Assembly (NCBI GenBank): GCA_026707945.1
Contig: JAPOVV010000025.1
Location: 50,564-114,563, forward strand
DNA length: 64,000 bases
Source of the DNA: Gammaproteobacteria bacterium
GTDB lineage: Bacteria; Pseudomonadota; Gammaproteobacteria; Pseudomonadales; Azotimanducaceae
Direction: 5' to 3'
Shown piece by piece: positions 46,214 to 52,835 of the stretch. Position 1 is the stretch's first letter. The number at the start of each line of letters is the position of its first letter. Under the pieces are notes generated by a model, which was not told the origin of the DNA, made no database searches, and saw only the letters and a list, made by a program, of their open reading frames with translations. Position numbers and translations under genes: made by a program.

Positions 46214-47113
46214 CTAAGTACGGAAAAGCCACCTTAAGGACTCCGCAAAGATTGCGCCACCGTGGCGCAAGCTATGACCTCCTTCACCAAACTCAAAGCG
46301 ATAGTCATATCCGGCGTAGTCAAGCGCGGCTGCTACATCTTGGTTCGCAATCGGCCAATTTCCTGGCACGATATTTGCGTCGCGACTGCCGCTTTGTAAA
46401 AAGACTCGAACGGGTTTCCGTGGCGTTCGTCGAATCATGGATGGATAGTTGTGACCGCCGCGCAGGTTTACAAACGAACCACAATGACTTAATACGCGAC
46501 CAAAGCTCGTCGGTGAATGCCAAGCCGCGGTAAATGCACAAATTCCCCCGCTCGAAATTCCGCAAATCAGTCTTTTTGAAGGATCACTTGCTAGCGTTTT
46601 GCCAGTGGTGGATTCGACCAAGGGTACGATCTCGTTATCGATAAACGTCACATGCCGATCCGAAACGGTGTCATATTCGATACTGCGTTGCGCTGGTTCG
46701 CTCTCCGAAATACCCGCAGTAACGAACACGGCAATGAGTGGAGGTAATTCGTCATTCGCGCTCATCGAGTCTAACACGCGCGTCGCTCGTACCGCACCCT
46801 CACGCCATAGATAAAAATCGCCATCATTGAAATACACAAATAGAGGCGGCTCCGTCGAATCCGCAACACCTGCGGACTCGTATATCGAAATCGTCCGAGT
46901 CGTATCTGGATAGATCTTTGATTCAGCCCAATCGCGGATACGAGTGAACTCGCCAACCGGGATTTGGCTGCCCGGATAAGCTTCGGCGCATGGGTTGTAC
47001 TGACTATCCTCCGGCACGACGGTCGACTTTGCGATCTCGTCGGAAGAGCGTCCGTTGACCTCACGCGGTGGCGGTTCATGCAAACCATACCGCTTATAGG
47101 TGTCAAAATCCAT
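46214..47113 (-). CDS. Esterase of the 'putative esterase'/enterochelin-esterase-like alpha/beta family
   Basis: Nucleophile elbow GISSGG. C-terminal GGH (EGGHSLRHG). Size about 300 aa. Confidence 0.72.
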   Translation of the reverse strand: MDFDTYKRYGLHEPPPREVNGRSSDEIAKSTVVPEDSQYNPCAEAYPGSQIPVGEFTRIRDWAESKIYPDTTRTISIYESAGVADSTEPPLFVYFNDGDFYLWREGAVRATRVLDSMSANDELPPLIAVFVTAGISESEPAQRSIEYDTVSDRHVTFIDNEIVPLVESTTGKTLASDPSKRLICGISSGGICAFTAAWHSPTSFGRVLSHCGSFVNLRGGHNYPSMIRRTPRKPVRVFLQSGSRDANIVPGNWPIANQDVAAALDYAGYDYRFEFGEGGHSLRHGGAIFAESLRWLFRT

Positions 47114-47148
47114 CTTAGTTTCCTAAATCACCGAGCGCTCGCGCAGCG

Positions 47149-50100
47149 CTACGGTCTGAATTGCAGCTCTCTGGAATGTAACTGATCAGGGAGCGAGACT
47201 AATCGGTACGCCAACTTGACCCATTCACATACATAGCGACGGGTATCGCGCGGGTCAATCATTTCCTCTATTTGGAACTTGGATAACGGTCCTAGAGGAC
47301 CGCGCGCACTCTCAATCCGTGCGTTTAACTCAGCACGTAGTGCTTCGGGGTCCTCAGCTTCGGCTAGCTGACGCCTGTACGCTGCCTCAATGCCCCCTTC
47401 GGGTGGAATACCTCCAGTATCGGCTGCTGGCCATGCGACTCGCATCGAAGGGGCCGAACGCGGTGTCGCGTAGTTGTTACCCGCCACGCCAAAACTGCGT
47501 CGCATGACGACGGTGAAAATCGGTATGCGCACTTGTGAAAATGCCACCATCCATTCGCCGCCCGCTCGAATCGTTCCGGCAATCTCGTGCTCTAAGCCAA
47601 CAGCAAACCCAGGGTTATCGACGAGATTCAATACGGGTAGATGGAATAGATCGCACAAGTCCAAGTGACGCGTCAGTTTGCGGCAGCCATCTGCGGTTAA
47701 AGCACCGCCGTTCACGTGTTGGCTATCGGACGCAATGACCCCCACCGGATGGCCGGCAAATCGTGCCAAGCCCGTTACTTGATCAGTTCCCCACAAGCCA
47801 CCAATCTCAAAGAAGGAATCCTTGTCAACGATCAAATCAATCGTGTGACGAACATCGAACGTCGTTGTACGCTTCCGCGGGATGATTGAAAACAACTCAT
47901 CCTCTCGACGGTCATCCGGGTCAGCACACGACACGATCGGCGGCGCTTCATAGACACTTGAAGGTAGATAAGACAAGAACCTTCGCACCGTCGCGGCGGC
48001 GTCTTCTTCAGTTTCAGCCAGGTTATCTACCGACCCGTTCTTGCAGTGGACGCGCCAATCTCCCAGTTCTTCTTTGGTAATGTCGTAGCCCATCGCGTGT
48101 TTGACCACCGGCGGACCAGCGACGAAGAGCTGCGCGATATCTCTTACCATCACCGAGAAGTGACCAAGCACCGCTTTCGCCGCACCGATACCCACGACAC
48201 TACCAAGGAGCATATTGACGACTGGTACGGTAGCTAACTGCTGGGTATACATAGCGCTACCTAAGTGTCCTGGCAAGAACGAACCGCCGCCACCCGCTAC
48301 GCGAGGTCTGCCAGACTTGATAGCTCCTGTACTCTCCTTTGCTGAACTCTCGCCTTCCTGCTTTTGCTGAGGTACCATCGCAGCGACGCTTCCGCCGCCG
48401 GACGATCCATCAAGCAAACGCACCGAGGGCACACGCATCTCGATCGAAAGTCGATCGAGATGGGAACTCTTTGCGCCAATGGCCCCGTCAGCATGTCCAC
48501 CACGTGACGTGAAATCATCCGCGCAAACAATAGCTGTTCGTTGTTCAATTGCGCCCCATCCGCCGACATGATTTGCGGGCGTGAACGCAACGATATTGCC
48601 TTCGTCATCATAGGAGGCGAAGCCAGTGACAGAACCCACTTCGTGAAACGAATCCGCATCAAGTAAGAGCTCAATGCGTTCTCGGCATGTCAGCTTGTTG
48701 CGGTCCCGTTGCCGAACGACACCAGGATCTTCCGATCCGATGGCAAGGCGTTCCTTCGCCAACGCCTGCAGGGTGGCAACTTGATCCAACGTTGATTGCC
48801 AATCACTCGACTCGGGACGGGCTTCTGAATCAGCAGATTTCGTGACATCAAGTGGCGTCAGTGCCGCCACGGTTTCATTTGCCTTTAGAAGATCGCCTGC
48901 ATTCAACGCCTGAATTGCATTGACGCGACCCGATTTCGGAGCCGATATGACCGTTTCCATCTTCATCGCGTTGACCACAATGATTGGGTCACCAGCATTG
49001 ACTAGGTCACCTTCGGTAATTGACCACTCTACCAGCGTGCTTTCCAACGGGACGGTGATCGCCATATCCCCATCAGGGATGCGTAACGGCGACCGAAGGG
49101 GAGCATCAGATTGAACCGTTTCTTTTAGCCCAGTTGACTCTTGCGCCGATGATGTATTGGACTGTTCAAGGAATCCAACGAAACCGTTATCACGTCGACC
49201 ATCCGCTTGGATCAATTCCGGCTGCTCGTGCAGAAGCGTGGTCCGCGCATCGCCGTTTTCGACGAGTGCGTTATGACAGATTGCCGTAAGCGAATCCAGG
49301 TTCGTACTAATACCACTAATCTGGAACTCCCCCAATGCTTGCCTCATACGAGCAAGCGTGGCTTTGAAATCCCGATTCGTAGTAACAACGACCTTCGCTA
49401 GCAACGGATCGAACTGCGCACTAACTTCATACCCGTTGTAACCGTAACTGTCAACGCGGACCCCAGGTCCCGTCGGCTCCCTATATCCCGTGATCGTGCC
49501 AGCGGCGGTCGCGGTAACACGAGCCTGAATGCTGAAGCCTTTGGTCGCTTGAACGGACGCTTGATCTTTAATTCCGATTGAAGTCAGCGATTCGCCGGCT
49601 GCAATCCGGAATTGCGCTTCTACGAGGTCGATTCCCGTGATTTGCTCCGTAATGGTGTGCTCGACTTGAATACGCGGATTGCATTCGATAAAGAAGCATT
49701 CGCCTTTTTCAACATCAACTAGAAACTCGACCGTGCCAGCGTTCGCGTATCCCGCTTCCCTACAGAGCTTCGTTGCGTGATTCAATATCGTTTCGCGCAA
49801 CGTTGGTTCCAAGTTCGGTGCGGGAGCAAACTCCATCACTTTCTGATGACGCAACTGAATGGAACAATCGCGTTCAAACAAGTGAACGACTTCACCATGG
49901 GTATCCGCAAGGATTTGCACTTCAATATGACGCGGATTGGTGATCAGTTTTTCAATGAAGATCGAGCCATCACCGAATGCTGATTCCGCTTCACCGCTGC
50001 ATCTGTCGAACTCCTGGCGCAGATGATCTTCTGACTCGACGACCCGCATACCTCTACCGCCGCCGCCAGCTGCCGCTTTCAGCATCACCGGATAACCCAC

Positions 50101-50559
50101 ATCCGAAGCAAACTTGGCCGCATCGTCTTCACGGTCCGTTGCACGATCGCTGCCTGGTACGACCGGAATACCTAACTTCGCTGCCAAGTCTCGGGAAGCA
50201 ACTTTGTCCCCGAACGTTTGCAGTACATTTGCAGATGGACCGACAAACGTGATTCCTTCATTGGACATCCGCTCGGCAAATCTTGCATGTTCCGCCAGAA
50301 ACCCGTAACCGGGATGAACGCAATCGCAAGCTGATTTCTTGGCCACACTGATGAGCTGTTCAACATCCAAGTATCCAGCGACGGAGGATGCTCCAACAGG
50401 CGTTGTCAAGACTTGGCTGTGAGTAGTGAACTGGGTGTGAAGCGACGCCCGGTCTGCGTGAGGGTATACCGCAACGCTTTCTATACCAAGACTCTGTGCG
50501 GCGCGTGCGATACGGATGGCGATTTCGCCTCGATTGGCGATTAGAACGCGGTTGAACAT
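47149..50559 (-). CDS. Single-chain biotin-dependent acyl-CoA carboxylase (BC-BCCP-CT fusion, LCC-like)
   Basis: The first ~450 aa form a biotin carboxylase (MFNRVLIANRGEIAIRIARAA, KAAAGGGGRGMRVV). Biotinyl motif VVNAMKMET (Lys codon 48961-48963). C-terminal ~530 aa form an acyl-CoA carboxyltransferase beta-subunit-like domain (TCRERIELLLDADSFHEVG, DFTSRGG). Confidence 0.85.
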   Translation of the reverse strand: MFNRVLIANRGEIAIRIARAAQSLGIESVAVYPHADRASLHTQFTTHSQVLTTPVGASSVAGYLDVEQLISVAKKSACDCVHPGYGFLAEHARFAERMSNEGITFVGPSANVLQTFGDKVASRDLAAKLGIPVVPGSDRATDREDDAAKFASDVGYPVMLKAAAGGGGRGMRVVESEDHLRQEFDRCSGEAESAFGDGSIFIEKLITNPRHIEVQILADTHGEVVHLFERDCSIQLRHQKVMEFAPAPNLEPTLRETILNHATKLCREAGYANAGTVEFLVDVEKGECFFIECNPRIQVEHTITEQITGIDLVEAQFRIAAGESLTSIGIKDQASVQATKGFSIQARVTATAAGTITGYREPTGPGVRVDSYGYNGYEVSAQFDPLLAKVVVTTNRDFKATLARMRQALGEFQISGISTNLDSLTAICHNALVENGDARTTLLHEQPELIQADGRRDNGFVGFLEQSNTSSAQESTGLKETVQSDAPLRSPLRIPDGDMAITVPLESTLVEWSITEGDLVNAGDPIIVVNAMKMETVISAPKSGRVNAIQALNAGDLLKANETVAALTPLDVTKSADSEARPESSDWQSTLDQVATLQALAKERLAIGSEDPGVVRQRDRNKLTCRERIELLLDADSFHEVGSVTGFASYDDEGNIVAFTPANHVGGWGAIEQRTAIVCADDFTSRGGHADGAIGAKSSHLDRLSIEMRVPSVRLLDGSSGGGSVAAMVPQQKQEGESSAKESTGAIKSGRPRVAGGGGSFLPGHLGSAMYTQQLATVPVVNMLLGSVVGIGAAKAVLGHFSVMVRDIAQLFVAGPPVVKHAMGYDITKEELGDWRVHCKNGSVDNLAETEEDAAATVRRFLSYLPSSVYEAPPIVSCADPDDRREDELFSIIPRKRTTTFDVRHTIDLIVDKDSFFEIGGLWGTDQVTGLARFAGHPVGVIASDSQHVNGGALTADGCRKLTRHLDLCDLFHLPVLNLVDNPGFAVGLEHEIAGTIRAGGEWMVAFSQVRIPIFTVVMRRSFGVAGNNYATPRSAPSMRVAWPAADTGGIPPEGGIEAAYRRQLAEAEDPEALRAELNARIESARGPLGPLSKFQIEEMIDPRDTRRYVCEWVKLAYRLVSLPDQLHSRELQFRP

Positions 50560-50597
50560 GGTTTGATCAGATGTTATTAGGGTGAACTGGCAAGCGG

Positions 50598-51713
50598 CTA
50601 AGAGCCGTCATTTCCTTCTCTAATTTCAAAATAGCTTTCCTCTGCGATCGCATGCCACTGACTCACAGTCCCTTGGAAATCCTTGTACGAAGCAACGACA
50701 CGTGCTGACAGTTCGTCCTCATTGGCAAGTTCGTCAAACACTTCATTGGCGTACATTCGAAATGCCGATACCACGTCGTCAGGCAACTTGCGTAATTGGA
50801 CGCCATGTTCCTCCATCATGGTGTTCAAACTCGCCATGTTACGCGCGGTGTACTCATCCAGGGTGCTTTGATTAGAAGCGCGAGCGGCGACTTCCACGAT
50901 TTTCTGCAGGTCTTCCGGTAACGATTCGTATGCCGATTTGTTGACCATCAGCTCAAGTACTGCGTTCGGCTCTTGCCAACCAGGATAGTAGTAGTACGTC
51001 GCAATGTCATGTAGACCGAATGCTAGGTCGTTGTAAGGACCTACCCACTCAGTTGCATCAATGACGCCCGTCTGTAGAGAAGTAAATAGTTCGTTTCCTG
51101 GCAGTTGCACTGCCACACCTCCGGCTCGTTGGAATACATCTCCGCCTAATCCTGGGATGCGCATCTTTAAGCCTTGAATGTCCGCTAGACTGTTAATTTC
51201 CTTGTTGAACCAACCCGCCATTTGAACGCCGGAATTTCCAGCCGGGAACGGAATCAAATTGAATGGCGCATAGACCTCGCGCCATAGTTCTAAGCCACCA
51301 CCGTAGTGGAGCCAACTGTTGGTTTCTTGCGCGGTCATGCCGAACGGCACAGTGCCGAATACGGCAAGGATCGGTGCCTTGCCTCGCCAGTAATACGCCG
51401 CACTATGACCCATCTCGGCCGTACCGCTAGAGACGGCGTCGAACACTTGAAAGGCCGGAACATACTCGCCTGCACCGAACACCTTGATGGTCAAGCGGTT
51501 GTTGGACATCTCCGCGATGTTCTGGGCGAGTCGCTCCGCAGAAGTCGCAAGACCCGGCAGGTTTTTAGGCCAAGACATGACGAGCTTCCACTCGAATGTC
51601 TGCGCACTTGTCTGACTGGAGTTCGAGTCGTCGGCAGGAGGGGATTGCTCAGTCTCTGCACACGCGGCAAGAAGTGCCGTGAGAATGAAGCCAAACAGTA
51701 GTTTTCTGTGCAC
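50598..51713 (-). CDS. TRAP transporter substrate-binding protein (DctP superfamily), possible lipoprotein
   Basis: 371 aa. N-terminus MHRKLLFGFILTALLAAC with the lipobox-like LAAC. Mature part resembles TRAP solute receptors (WKLVMSWPKNLPG..., GHSAAYYW). Confidence 0.82.
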   Translation of the reverse strand: MHRKLLFGFILTALLAACAETEQSPPADDSNSSQTSAQTFEWKLVMSWPKNLPGLATSAERLAQNIAEMSNNRLTIKVFGAGEYVPAFQVFDAVSSGTAEMGHSAAYYWRGKAPILAVFGTVPFGMTAQETNSWLHYGGGLELWREVYAPFNLIPFPAGNSGVQMAGWFNKEINSLADIQGLKMRIPGLGGDVFQRAGGVAVQLPGNELFTSLQTGVIDATEWVGPYNDLAFGLHDIATYYYYPGWQEPNAVLELMVNKSAYESLPEDLQKIVEVAARASNQSTLDEYTARNMASLNTMMEEHGVQLRKLPDDVVSAFRMYANEVFDELANEDELSARVVASYKDFQGTVSQWHAIAEESYFEIREGNDGS

Positions 51714-51794
51714 GCTATCGCCTAAGCAGGATGCGAGAAGCGTTTCATTATCAACGTGCGATTCGGTTATGTCGATGGAATCGCGACGGATTTC

Positions 51795-52835
51795 TTACTC
51801 AGTTCGCGAACATAAACCATGCTTGGCCGCATAACGCATTGATGCCGACACATCGTACACATGTGGACCGTCTCGGTTGATTTCGACATTAACCCGTTCC
51901 CCCGCTTCAATTCGATGAAGTCGGTCGCCATCGATGGCAATCAGTCCCGTGGATTTCAACTCGCAACTATGCCCGAGCGGCAATCTACTAGTCTTAGAAA
52001 TGTGCACGTCACTGAAGTAACCAGGAGAAACCGGTACCTGTCGGCTATACCCTTCGCCAAACTTAACGTATAGACCACAATCGTCGTCGGCTCCAACAGG
52101 ATCCACCAGACCTCCGATGGGCGACATGCCAATGGCGTCCGGTTCAGCCCGCGTTAACACCATTTCACGCAATTTCAATGGGTCAAAAGGGCGATAGTTT
52201 CCGACAAAATCGTTTTCTATGCGAACTACGTCAATCAGTCCGATATCTTGCACGCGGGAGTCAATTGTCAGTCGAGCCACTTTGACGCGACGAGTCAACC
52301 GTTCTTGAGGAAGAAGCCCCTTCGCGCCCATCGCCGCGACCTCACCCGCAATGGTAGCTTCAACGGTAAGTGGAAAGACATTGTTAGTACCAGTAGACAA
52401 CGGAACGAGAAAGATATTGGGCGCGGTCTTCACGATGATTCTGTGCGTTCCATCTCCGCCCAACGCCACTACGTGGTCCACGCCATGTTCACAGAACGCG
52501 CTAATTGCTCGCGCCGTATCTGACATGTCATGCGTCAGTTCGATATCAAGAACGGTTACTTTGGCGCTAAGTGACATCCACTCTAAAGCACGTTCAGCAA
52601 TCCGAAATGGTTCGCGGACGATCAAGATCTCGTCGACGCCCATGGCGTCCGCACCAGCGGCAATTCGGGCGACACAATCCATCTTCGATTCATGGGTGAC
52701 CGTCGAAGCACGCGCCGCTAAACGTCGCACATCCCTTCCCGCCATCGGATTAACGCAAATGGCGATTCGGGCAATTCCTGAATGTTTCAATGATTGCGTT
52801 CGCTTATCTCGCGGTGTCGATACGTCGTGCGCCAT
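51795..52835 (-). CDS. ATP-NAD kinase-fold protein (AcoX-like)
   Basis: GGDGT motif (VVALGGDGTHRIIV). About 346 aa, the size of AcoX-type NAD-kinase-family proteins. Confidence 0.68.
   Translation of the reverse strand: MAHDVSTPRDKRTQSLKHSGIARIAICVNPMAGRDVRRLAARASTVTHESKMDCVARIAAGADAMGVDEILIVREPFRIAERALEWMSLSAKVTVLDIELTHDMSDTARAISAFCEHGVDHVVALGGDGTHRIIVKTAPNIFLVPLSTGTNNVFPLTVEATIAGEVAAMGAKGLLPQERLTRRVKVARLTIDSRVQDIGLIDVVRIENDFVGNYRPFDPLKLREMVLTRAEPDAIGMSPIGGLVDPVGADDDCGLYVKFGEGYSRQVPVSPGYFSDVHISKTSRLPLGHSCELKSTGLIAIDGDRLHRIEAGERVNVEINRDGPHVYDVSASMRYAAKHGLCSRTE

Follow-up and report, generated by a model that had tools for sequence, protein, structure and literature searches.

The gene at positions 47149..50559 on the reverse strand of the window (the whole stretch of 64,000 nucleotides analysed here, from a Gammaproteobacteria bacterium) is, judged by its sequence, a real and intact gene for an all-in-one biotin-dependent acyl-CoA carboxylase of 1136 aa. 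[quoted passage not shown] To our knowledge, bacterial acyl-CoA carboxylases of a single chain are at present taken for LCC, an enzyme represented by one crystal structure and few assays. Our literature searches retrieved no description of this second single-chain family, and its members, almost all of them from uncultured organisms, appear to be unstudied.

An intact single-chain gene and its domains

The open reading frame runs from an ATG to a TAG with zero internal stops, as seen in the ORF listing and its translation, and its GC content (0.52-0.55) is similar to that of the flanks. As the earlier note had claimed, a biotin carboxylase (BC), a biotinyl (BCCP) domain and a CT all lie in this single uninterrupted frame, where Pfam located the three of them. 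The idea that such a long frame is an artefact, in which a frameshift or misassembly joins separate alpha and beta genes, can draw on a few shorter family entries, such as the CT-only P0201 (536 aa), and on G026, which has the gene in two frames. Nonetheless, co-linear orthologues of full length are spread over many phyla, some of them in complete genomes of a single contig, and 78 of the 80 loci kept from the genomes of other species encode a co-linear protein spanning at least query residues 4-1129. P0201, which has an unrelated gene on the opposite strand beside it, appears to be what is left of a truncated gene; its interpretation as a genuine two-gene (split) form was rejected. The CT part was translated for 22 loci, none of which has an internal stop. 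Database homologues number more than 7900, and of the 120 best listed nearly all have a length of about 1125-1185 aa. These comparisons lend no support to the separate genes raised in the earlier note, and we consider an artefact extremely improbable. A promoter and terminator scan at the locus gave no signal exceeding chance.

The BC (ATP-grasp) domain spans aa 1-444 (49228..50559, reverse strand; Pfam PF00289, PF02786 and PF02785), close to the limit of about aa 450 proposed previously, with Biotin_carb_N at aa 1-113, CPSase_L_D2 at aa 118-326 (E 1e-75) and Biotin_carb_C at aa 350-444. It scores 412 bits against the BC of Staphylococcus aureus pyruvate carboxylase (PC) and 391 bits against that of the D. 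radiodurans single-chain carboxylase (5h80). The motifs GDK, MLKAAAGGGGRG, RHIEVQ, HQK, VEFL, ECNPRIQVEH and QARV are intact, and the equivalents of K116, K159, H209, K238, E276, E288/N290/R292 and R338, in E. coli BC numbering, are present in the PC alignment and within the family. A poorly conserved linker without Pfam match follows (aa 445-500, 49060..49227, reverse strand), with a mean identity of 23% to ten family members of other lineages; at only about 55 aa, it separates BC from BCCP in a chain in which Pfam detected no BT domain. The biotinyl domain itself (Biotin_lipoyl, PF00364, E 2e-13) occupies aa 501-566 (48862..49059, reverse strand). Its AMKM motif begins at residue 531, and the biotin-attachment lysine computed from the sequence, K533 in NAMKME, is encoded by an AAG codon at 48961..48963 (reverse strand), exactly where it had been placed before. 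AMKME is invariant across the family members compared, and the catalytic motifs of BC are kept, as is the AMKM lysine, in the query and the ten members of other lineages, to which the query shows mean identities of 59% in BC, 41% in BCCP, 80% in CT and 81% in a CT insert discussed below.

The CT domain, composed of two crotonase-fold halves, extends over aa 617-1118 (47206..48711, reverse strand), and its match to PF01039 (Carboxyl_trans, E 7e-84) spans profile positions 2-479 of 493, pointing to a full two-half domain. No specific NCBIfam model matched the 1136-aa protein, whose only matches, to mmdA and PC/AccC models, all lie far below the cut-offs. The mmdA match (265 bits against a cut-off of 999) is the sole one for the CT and, together with the presence of 12S transcarboxylase among the Foldseek matches, it might suggest that this domain acts as a decarboxylase or transcarboxylase (MmdA-, GcdA- or 12S-like) instead of serving an ATP-dependent carboxylase. 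Yet the chain also carries, in cis, a complete BC with all ATP-grasp and carboxylation motifs, about 59% conserved across phyla, for which a decarboxylase would have no use. There are also no membrane Na+-pump subunits adjacent to the gene, and we give this possibility very little credence.

Divergence from LCC

The description of the protein as LCC-like in the earlier note holds for its architecture and in part for its BC, but not for its CT. We take the single-chain LCC family to include MapLCC (the enzyme of Mycobacterium avium subsp. paratuberculosis), PaLCC and the D. radiodurans carboxylase. MapLCC is reportedly, after Tran et al. 2015, a homo-hexamer with swapped domains and a lower Km on long-chain acyl-CoA. 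Like MapLCC (4rcn) and the D. radiodurans enzyme (5h80 for BC, 5fif for CT), the query is one chain of about 1100 aa in BC-BCCP-CT order, lacks a BT domain and has its BC in the same clade; 4rcn is also the top PDB match of the whole chain (466 bits). The MapLCC structure goes back to a 2015 Nature paper, as cited in PMC6491548 and PMC4673880, and the former ascribes to LCC enzymes a homo-hexameric assembly with swapped domains and a lower Km for long-chain acyl-CoA; the LCC CT clade corresponds to its group III. In our BC tree the single-chain BCs sampled form one clade (99/97), together with one 494-aa frame, and the query's family (100/99) branches as the sister of the LCC-type group (100/98), not from within it. 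This sister relation rests on limited sampling, since only one pyruvate carboxylase and a small number of other reference BCs entered the tree.

The shared order, the missing BT domain, the common BC clade and the whole-chain match to 4rcn are what speaks for an LCC-family enzyme acting on long-chain acyl-CoA, but the CT tells otherwise. Against the PDB, it scores 233 bits to 1x0u, 230 to 7w5u, 222 to 1vrg and about 220 to PccB, and only 138 to 4rcn. An AlphaFold2 model built with the family alignment, of mediocre quality (mean pLDDT 67), finds its best Foldseek matches in the PCC-beta structures 8pn7 and 6ybp (TM 0.71), with 4rcn absent from the top 50. The nearest solved CT structures are thus PCC and acyl-CoA carboxylase betas (220-233 bits, fold TM 0.71), and the query shares the two-half crotonase CT of S. 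coelicolor PccB (1xnv/3mfm), M. extorquens PCC (6ybp), T. maritima 1vrg and S. tokodaii 1x0u. It differs from them in being only about 25-30% identical, in its fusion to BC-BCCP and in its 50-aa insert. In the CT tree the family forms a clade (100/100) within a larger one (100/100) in which most CTs are stand-alone, LCC CTs make up a separate 100/100 clade that also lies next to stand-alone CTs, and the PCC-beta references fall in a clade of their own. For a grouping chosen after viewing a quick tree, the AU test rejects a joint clade of the query's family and LCC CTs (delta lnL 96, p-AU 2.65e-52). Of the PCC/MCC-beta-like CT that the earlier note had drawn at about aa 600-1136, the likeness to PCC-beta stands, within the narrower Pfam limits, and the likeness to MCC-beta is not borne out by PDB scores and CT tree.

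The genome itself provides a further comparison, since it carries four LCC-type paralogues besides the 1136-aa carboxylase. These represent the poorly understood proteobacterial LCC homologues, among which the query had been counted, better than the query does: the CT of the one paralogue tested reaches 633 bits to 4rcn, and the four chains end in ...K(K/R)RxxIDTW, as opposed to ...LQFRP in the query. The closest relatives of the query CT are instead stand-alone CTs of about 515-527 aa and the fused P0251 (1106 aa) and P0259 (1091 aa), which are 41-47% identical to it and fall in the same 100/100 clade. The query and these relatives share the motifs LLDxxGGS and (Y/F)GV(A/G), and a terminal P is common to most of them (...RP in four). 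BC-BCCP is missing in cis from the majority, none has the long conserved insert, and the BC domains of P0251 and P0259 group with LCC-type BCs, not with the query's family. Three of these uncharacterised stand-alone CTs are encoded in the query's own genome (C9:133855-135414, C47:50214-51764 and C47:152838-154394).

The insert, of about 50 aa, is specific to the family and absent from MapLCC. It lies in the N-terminal half of the CT (aa 722-773, 48241..48396, reverse strand), interrupts the alignment with PDB CTs and follows the pattern GGSVAAMVPQQK.EGES.AKES.GAIK.GRPRV.GGGGSFLPGHLGS. It occupies the place of the short SGGARIQEG-type segment of PCC-beta, beside the N-domain glycine motif, and is 81% identical among the ten members of other lineages. 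The AlphaFold2 model tells nothing about it, as pLDDT there is below 50. Taken with the four LCC-type genes already present, the separate CT clades and the CT scores, this conserved insert makes membership in the LCC family very unlikely.

Distribution, gene neighbourhood and candidate substrates

The family comprises thousands of sequences of about 65% identity across phyla, with members in Gamma-, Alpha- and "delta"-proteobacteria, Acidobacteriota, Binatia, Chloroflexota, Actinomycetota and Poribacteria. At least about 545 species genomes carry it. Its 80 best genomic loci all come from uncultured MAGs, many of them sponge-derived; the bacteria that carry the family live in the sea, in sponges and in soil, and almost all of them are uncultured. 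It was not found in 10 of the 28 other genomes of the genus, nor in 24 genomes sampled from the order's other families.

The gene is flanked on its own strand by three genes whose association with it is local to the lineage. Upstream, 38 nt from the carboxylase start, lies a gene for a TRAP solute-binding protein of the DctP family (50598..51713, reverse strand; PF03480, E 1e-56), a neighbourhood conserved only in the closest relatives (loci L012 and L015-L018). Also upstream is a gene for a protein with NAD-kinase/DAG-kinase fold (51795..52835, reverse strand; weak matches to PF01513 and PF00781), and downstream, 35 nt past the stop codon, lies a putative esterase gene (46214..47113, reverse strand; PF00756), each conserved only in close relatives. 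All-versus-all clustering of the ORFs at the 80 loci revealed lineage-local synteny only, with no partner common to several phyla, and an analysis of close same-strand neighbours, in which many of the ORFs called in high-GC loci are spurious, likewise yielded no partner across phyla. In seeded tblastn searches, genes for family-III CoA-transferase (8 of the 80 loci), enoyl-CoA hydratase (11), SDR (11) and PhyH (7) were encountered near family members in several phyla. This presence of CoA-ester enzymes near a minority of loci is suggestive, though it is not a defining pattern, and the heterogeneity of the neighbourhoods leaves the CoA-transferase link confined to 8 of the 80 loci. The TRAP binding protein encoded directly upstream is of an organic-acid type, and we count it as context for the reading proposed below.

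A more prosaic role would be that of a single-chain housekeeping enzyme for short-chain substrates, a propionyl- or acetyl-CoA carboxylase making methylmalonyl- or malonyl-CoA. In both PDB and Foldseek comparisons the CT matches PCC-beta and ACC-beta best. The gene usually stands alone among unrelated genes and the conservation of its CT is very strong, both of which would fit an enzyme whose substrate is a common metabolite. Moreover, the genome shows no obvious stand-alone pair of PCC alpha and beta, and its sole alpha subunit adjoins an MCC/GCC-like beta. One objection is that searches for methylmalonyl-CoA mutase (PF01642) came up empty both in this genome and in 28 others of its genus (18 of them with the family), a result that argues against a classical PCC role. 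The genome also encodes a separate 1634-aa fusion of ACC type, and the patchy occurrence of the family within genus and order likewise speaks against housekeeping. Finally, the insert lies by the active-site motif, and the alignment reveals changes at the oxyanion and specificity positions of PccB (G183 to I, G419 to V and D422 to N). The PccB-type specificity residue D422 is thus not kept in the 1136-aa carboxylase, and changes at these PccB-equivalent positions mean that the acceptor could be unusual. On balance, a housekeeping role appears improbable, if less so than an LCC function.

We therefore favour, as the probable reading, a functional single-chain biotin-dependent acyl-CoA carboxylase of a separate family, with a CT from a non-LCC clade, that is not an enzyme of the propionyl-CoA/mutase route; like the assignments above, this is a prediction from sequence comparison. 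The N-terminal ATP-grasp BC would use MgATP and bicarbonate to form carboxylated biotin on K533 of the BCCP, the central BCCP would then swing over to the C-terminal crotonase-fold CT, and the CT would move the carboxyl group onto the alpha-carbon of an acyl-CoA, a target suggested by a CT that is of PCC/ACC type and not of MCC/GCC type. Oligomerisation would probably proceed via the CT domain, since PCC-beta-type CTs form hexamers. In evolutionary terms, the BC module would represent a sister lineage of the LCC-type BC, and the CT would derive from a different clade, otherwise made up mostly of stand-alone carboxyltransferases of about 520 aa. Our best guess for the substrate is an acyl-CoA of short or medium length, perhaps functionalised, that derives from an imported organic acid; propionyl-CoA destined for a methylmalonyl-CoA mutase pathway is presumably not what the enzyme acts on.

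Implications for single-chain carboxylases

A bolder and decidedly tentative proposal is that the family constitutes a new type of carboxylase, in which the insert of the highly conserved CT acts as a substrate lid and the acyl-CoA or other thioester is novel to carboxylases; single-chain carboxylases in general would then stem from one BC-BCCP lineage that repeatedly recombined with different stand-alone CTs. If true, organic-acid breakdown in these abundant but uncultured bacteria of sea, sponges and soil would include a hitherto unrecognised step of CO2 incorporation. More generally, the existence of at least one further large family with the same architecture but a different CT means that function is not transferable from LCC to single-chain carboxylases at large. 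The mosaic of one BC lineage with several CT clades would offer a clear example of a multienzyme shaped by domain recombination, and knowing the substrate would supply a missing piece in the picture of how sponge symbionts and marine heterotrophs metabolise carbon.

An intact single-chain carboxylase and its family

The query carboxylase, at window positions 47149..50559 (-), occupies one ATG-to-TAG frame of 1136 codons, along which Pfam places Biotin_carb_N (residues 1-113), ATP-grasp (CPSase_L_D2, 118-326), Biotin_carb_C (350-444), Biotin_lipoyl (501-566) and Carboxyl_trans (617-1118). The earlier proposal that biotin carboxylase (BC), biotinyl carrier (BCCP) and carboxyltransferase (CT) are fused in one ORF is thus borne out, and the biotinyl lysine lies where it had been located, as K533 in NAMKME (AAG, 48961-48963). 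None of the motifs that the BC needs to bind ATP and carboxylate biotin is disrupted, and ten family members from other lineages show little or no variation in them. A frameshift or assembly artefact, raised as a possible source of the fusion, is dismissed by 78 of 80 loci from other species, where a co-linear protein spans query residues 4-1129 or more. The databases contain more than 7900 homologues, and nearly all of the best 120 measure about 1125-1185 aa; the GC content of the gene is that of its flanks. We are confident, from the sequence, that this is a real gene for a biotin-dependent acyl-CoA carboxylase.

Even between phyla, the orthologues that make up the query family share about 65% identity with the query. 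They occur in Pseudomonadales ("Ca. Azotimanducaceae"), Alpha- and "delta"-proteobacteria, Caulobacterales, Poribacteria, Acidobacteriota (Holophagales, Thermoanaerobaculia, "Ca. Multivorans"), Binatia, Chloroflexota/Dehalococcoidia and Acidimicrobiia/Actinomycetes. All of the best 80 loci come from MAGs, and sponges, seawater, soil or groundwater are the source of many of these; database names of the members are generic, and NCBIfam holds no model specific to the family. Closer to the query, 18 of 28 further genomes of its genus have an orthologue, as do 5 of 8 from other genera of its taxonomic family; a sample of 24 from different families of the same order has none.

Mean identity to ten members from other lineages is 59% in BC, 41% in BCCP, 23-29% in the linkers and 80% in CT. 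It reaches 81% in an insert (aa 722-773) placed where PCC-beta carries a short SGGARIQEG-type segment. Since the loop at this site, variable in other CTs, is long and conserved in the query family, we infer that it is functional; it may be a lid close to the active site. At the positions of PccB G183, G419 and D422 the query has I, V and N. An AlphaFold2 model of the CT (mean pLDDT 67, pTM 0.73; insert below 50) has as its top Foldseek matches the PCC-beta structures 8pn7 and 6ybp (TM 0.71), and 4rcn is absent from its top 50.

Mosaic relationship to the long-chain acyl-CoA carboxylases

The earlier note had called the enzyme LCC-like (LCC, long-chain acyl-CoA carboxylase), a description that stands for layout and probably for BC ancestry but not for the CT, which PDB scores and the CT tree place outside the LCC type. 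In a whole-chain PDB search the top match is indeed MapLCC (4rcn, 466 bits), because 4rcn alone offers all three domains. The CT alone scores 233 bits against 1x0u, 230 against 7w5u, 222 against 1vrg and 220 against PccB, and only 138 against 4rcn. The BC alone scores 412 bits against S. aureus pyruvate carboxylase and 391 against the D. radiodurans enzyme (5h80), and 4rcn falls short of E 1e-100.

The CT tree (57 rows, IQ-TREE LG+C20, UFBoot/SH-aLRT, rooted on MCC-beta-like CTs) unites the PCC-beta/ACC-beta references (100/95) and sets MapLCC and four paralogues from the query genome in a 100/100 LCC clade on a long stem, sister to a stand-alone 512-aa CT (100/99). The query family forms a 100/100 clade nested in a 100/100 clade of 33 rows, mostly stand-alone CTs of 515-527 aa, which also holds three other fused proteins, P0251 (1106 aa), P0259 (1091 aa) and P0263. 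Phylogenetic placement, proposed earlier as a check, thus sets the query CT outside the LCC clade, and forcing the two together, a grouping chosen after a quick tree, cost 96 lnL units and was rejected (p-AU 2.65e-52). The reading of the query as an LCC orthologue is rejected on the domain-wise CT scores and the separate CT clades. The single-chain enzymes that have been characterised (MapLCC and those of P. aeruginosa and D. radiodurans) share one CT group, and the query CT falls outside it; group III of PMC6491548 puts mycobacterial and Pseudomonas CTs together.

Three stand-alone CTs of the genome, of about 517 aa, belong to the 33-row clade (contigs C9:133855-135414, C47:50214-51764 and C47:152838-154394). 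They have no adjacent BC or BCCP gene, and neighbouring ORFs look, by eye only, PhyH-like or enoyl-CoA-hydratase-like.

The genome (3.8 Mb, 117 contigs) carries five single-chain BC-BCCP-CT genes including the query. Full-length identity between the query and the other four is 33-34%, and these four have a CFAGN motif in common. The three whose BC domains were tested fall inside the LCC-type group, and the two best PDB matches of one paralogue CT are 4rcn (633 bits) and 5fif (564 bits, D. radiodurans CT). The four paralogues are the organism's true LCC-type genes. Two LCC-type genes stand in tandem on the same contig beyond the window (C117:123801-130524; the window ends at C117:114563). Over the BC domain (the first ~1350 nt) the two are 100% identical in DNA, and the remainder is unrelated; the upstream copy has ELLELEH where AMKM is expected, without the biotinyl lysine. 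Several relatives have the pair as well, a pattern that suggests gene conversion still in progress and a paralogue whose carrier domain is dead.

In the BC tree (33 rows) all single-chain BCs form one clade (99/97), including a 494-aa frame from a relative judged from its BC only, with S. aureus pyruvate carboxylase as sister (96/93). The query family (100/99) is sister to a group (100/98) of MapLCC, the LCC-type paralogues, P0251 and P0259; the last two thus join an LCC-type BC to a CT of the query family's larger clade. All these enzymes appear to draw their BC(-BCCP) module from one lineage, which is joined to CTs of two or more clearly distinct clades. Together with the mixed P0251 and P0259, this points to a mosaic history of module recombination or of repeated fusion and fission; the reference sampling of the BC tree is modest. 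The query carboxylase has an LCC-like layout and, apparently, BC ancestry, but belongs to a distinct family.

Genomic setting and predicted role

Genes for an NAD-kinase-fold protein, a DctP-type TRAP binding protein, the carboxylase and an esterase form, in that order, a tight same-strand row (window 46214-52835, -), with gaps of 81 nt, 38 nt (DctP-type protein to carboxylase) and 35 nt (carboxylase to esterase). The row is kept only in the closest relatives, whose carboxylases are 71-96% identical. The permease genes that match, DctQ/DctM, are on the opposite strand at a distance of about 7.7 kb (window 41-43 kb). Across phyla the carboxylase loci have no conserved partner gene. A family-III CoA-transferase is near the carboxylase in 8 of 80 loci, directly adjacent in one Chloroflexota and one Actinomycetes locus, and PhyH-family dioxygenases, enoyl-CoA hydratases and SDRs also recur near some members. 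In the Chloroflexota MAG (L089) an 809-aa ORF abuts the carboxylase gene upstream, and a match to family-III CoA-transferase lies within 50 nt; in the Actinomycetes MAG (L086) such a match is 117 nt away.

Family-III CoA-transferase (PF02515) matches number 29 in the genome. Searches of the genome and of 28 genus relatives, some of these complete, turned up no methylmalonyl-CoA mutase (PF01642), which makes a classical PCC role unlikely. The query is probably not the housekeeping ACC either, since a separate 1634-aa ACC-type fusion (C36:166101-171005, -, outside the window) combines AccA-like and AccD-like CT parts, BC and a weak C-terminal biotinyl domain (AFKV). Searches of the genome picked up no ordinary AccC ORF of about 450 aa, and single-chain ACCs are mentioned for Shewanella and other gammaproteobacteria (PMC12362589). 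The query carboxylase is predicted to be an ATP-dependent alpha-carboxylase whose acyl-CoA substrate would be made from an organic acid taken up by the cell. Literature searches found no paper describing its family, and what is new here is that the CT of a single-chain carboxylase of this kind is not LCC-type.
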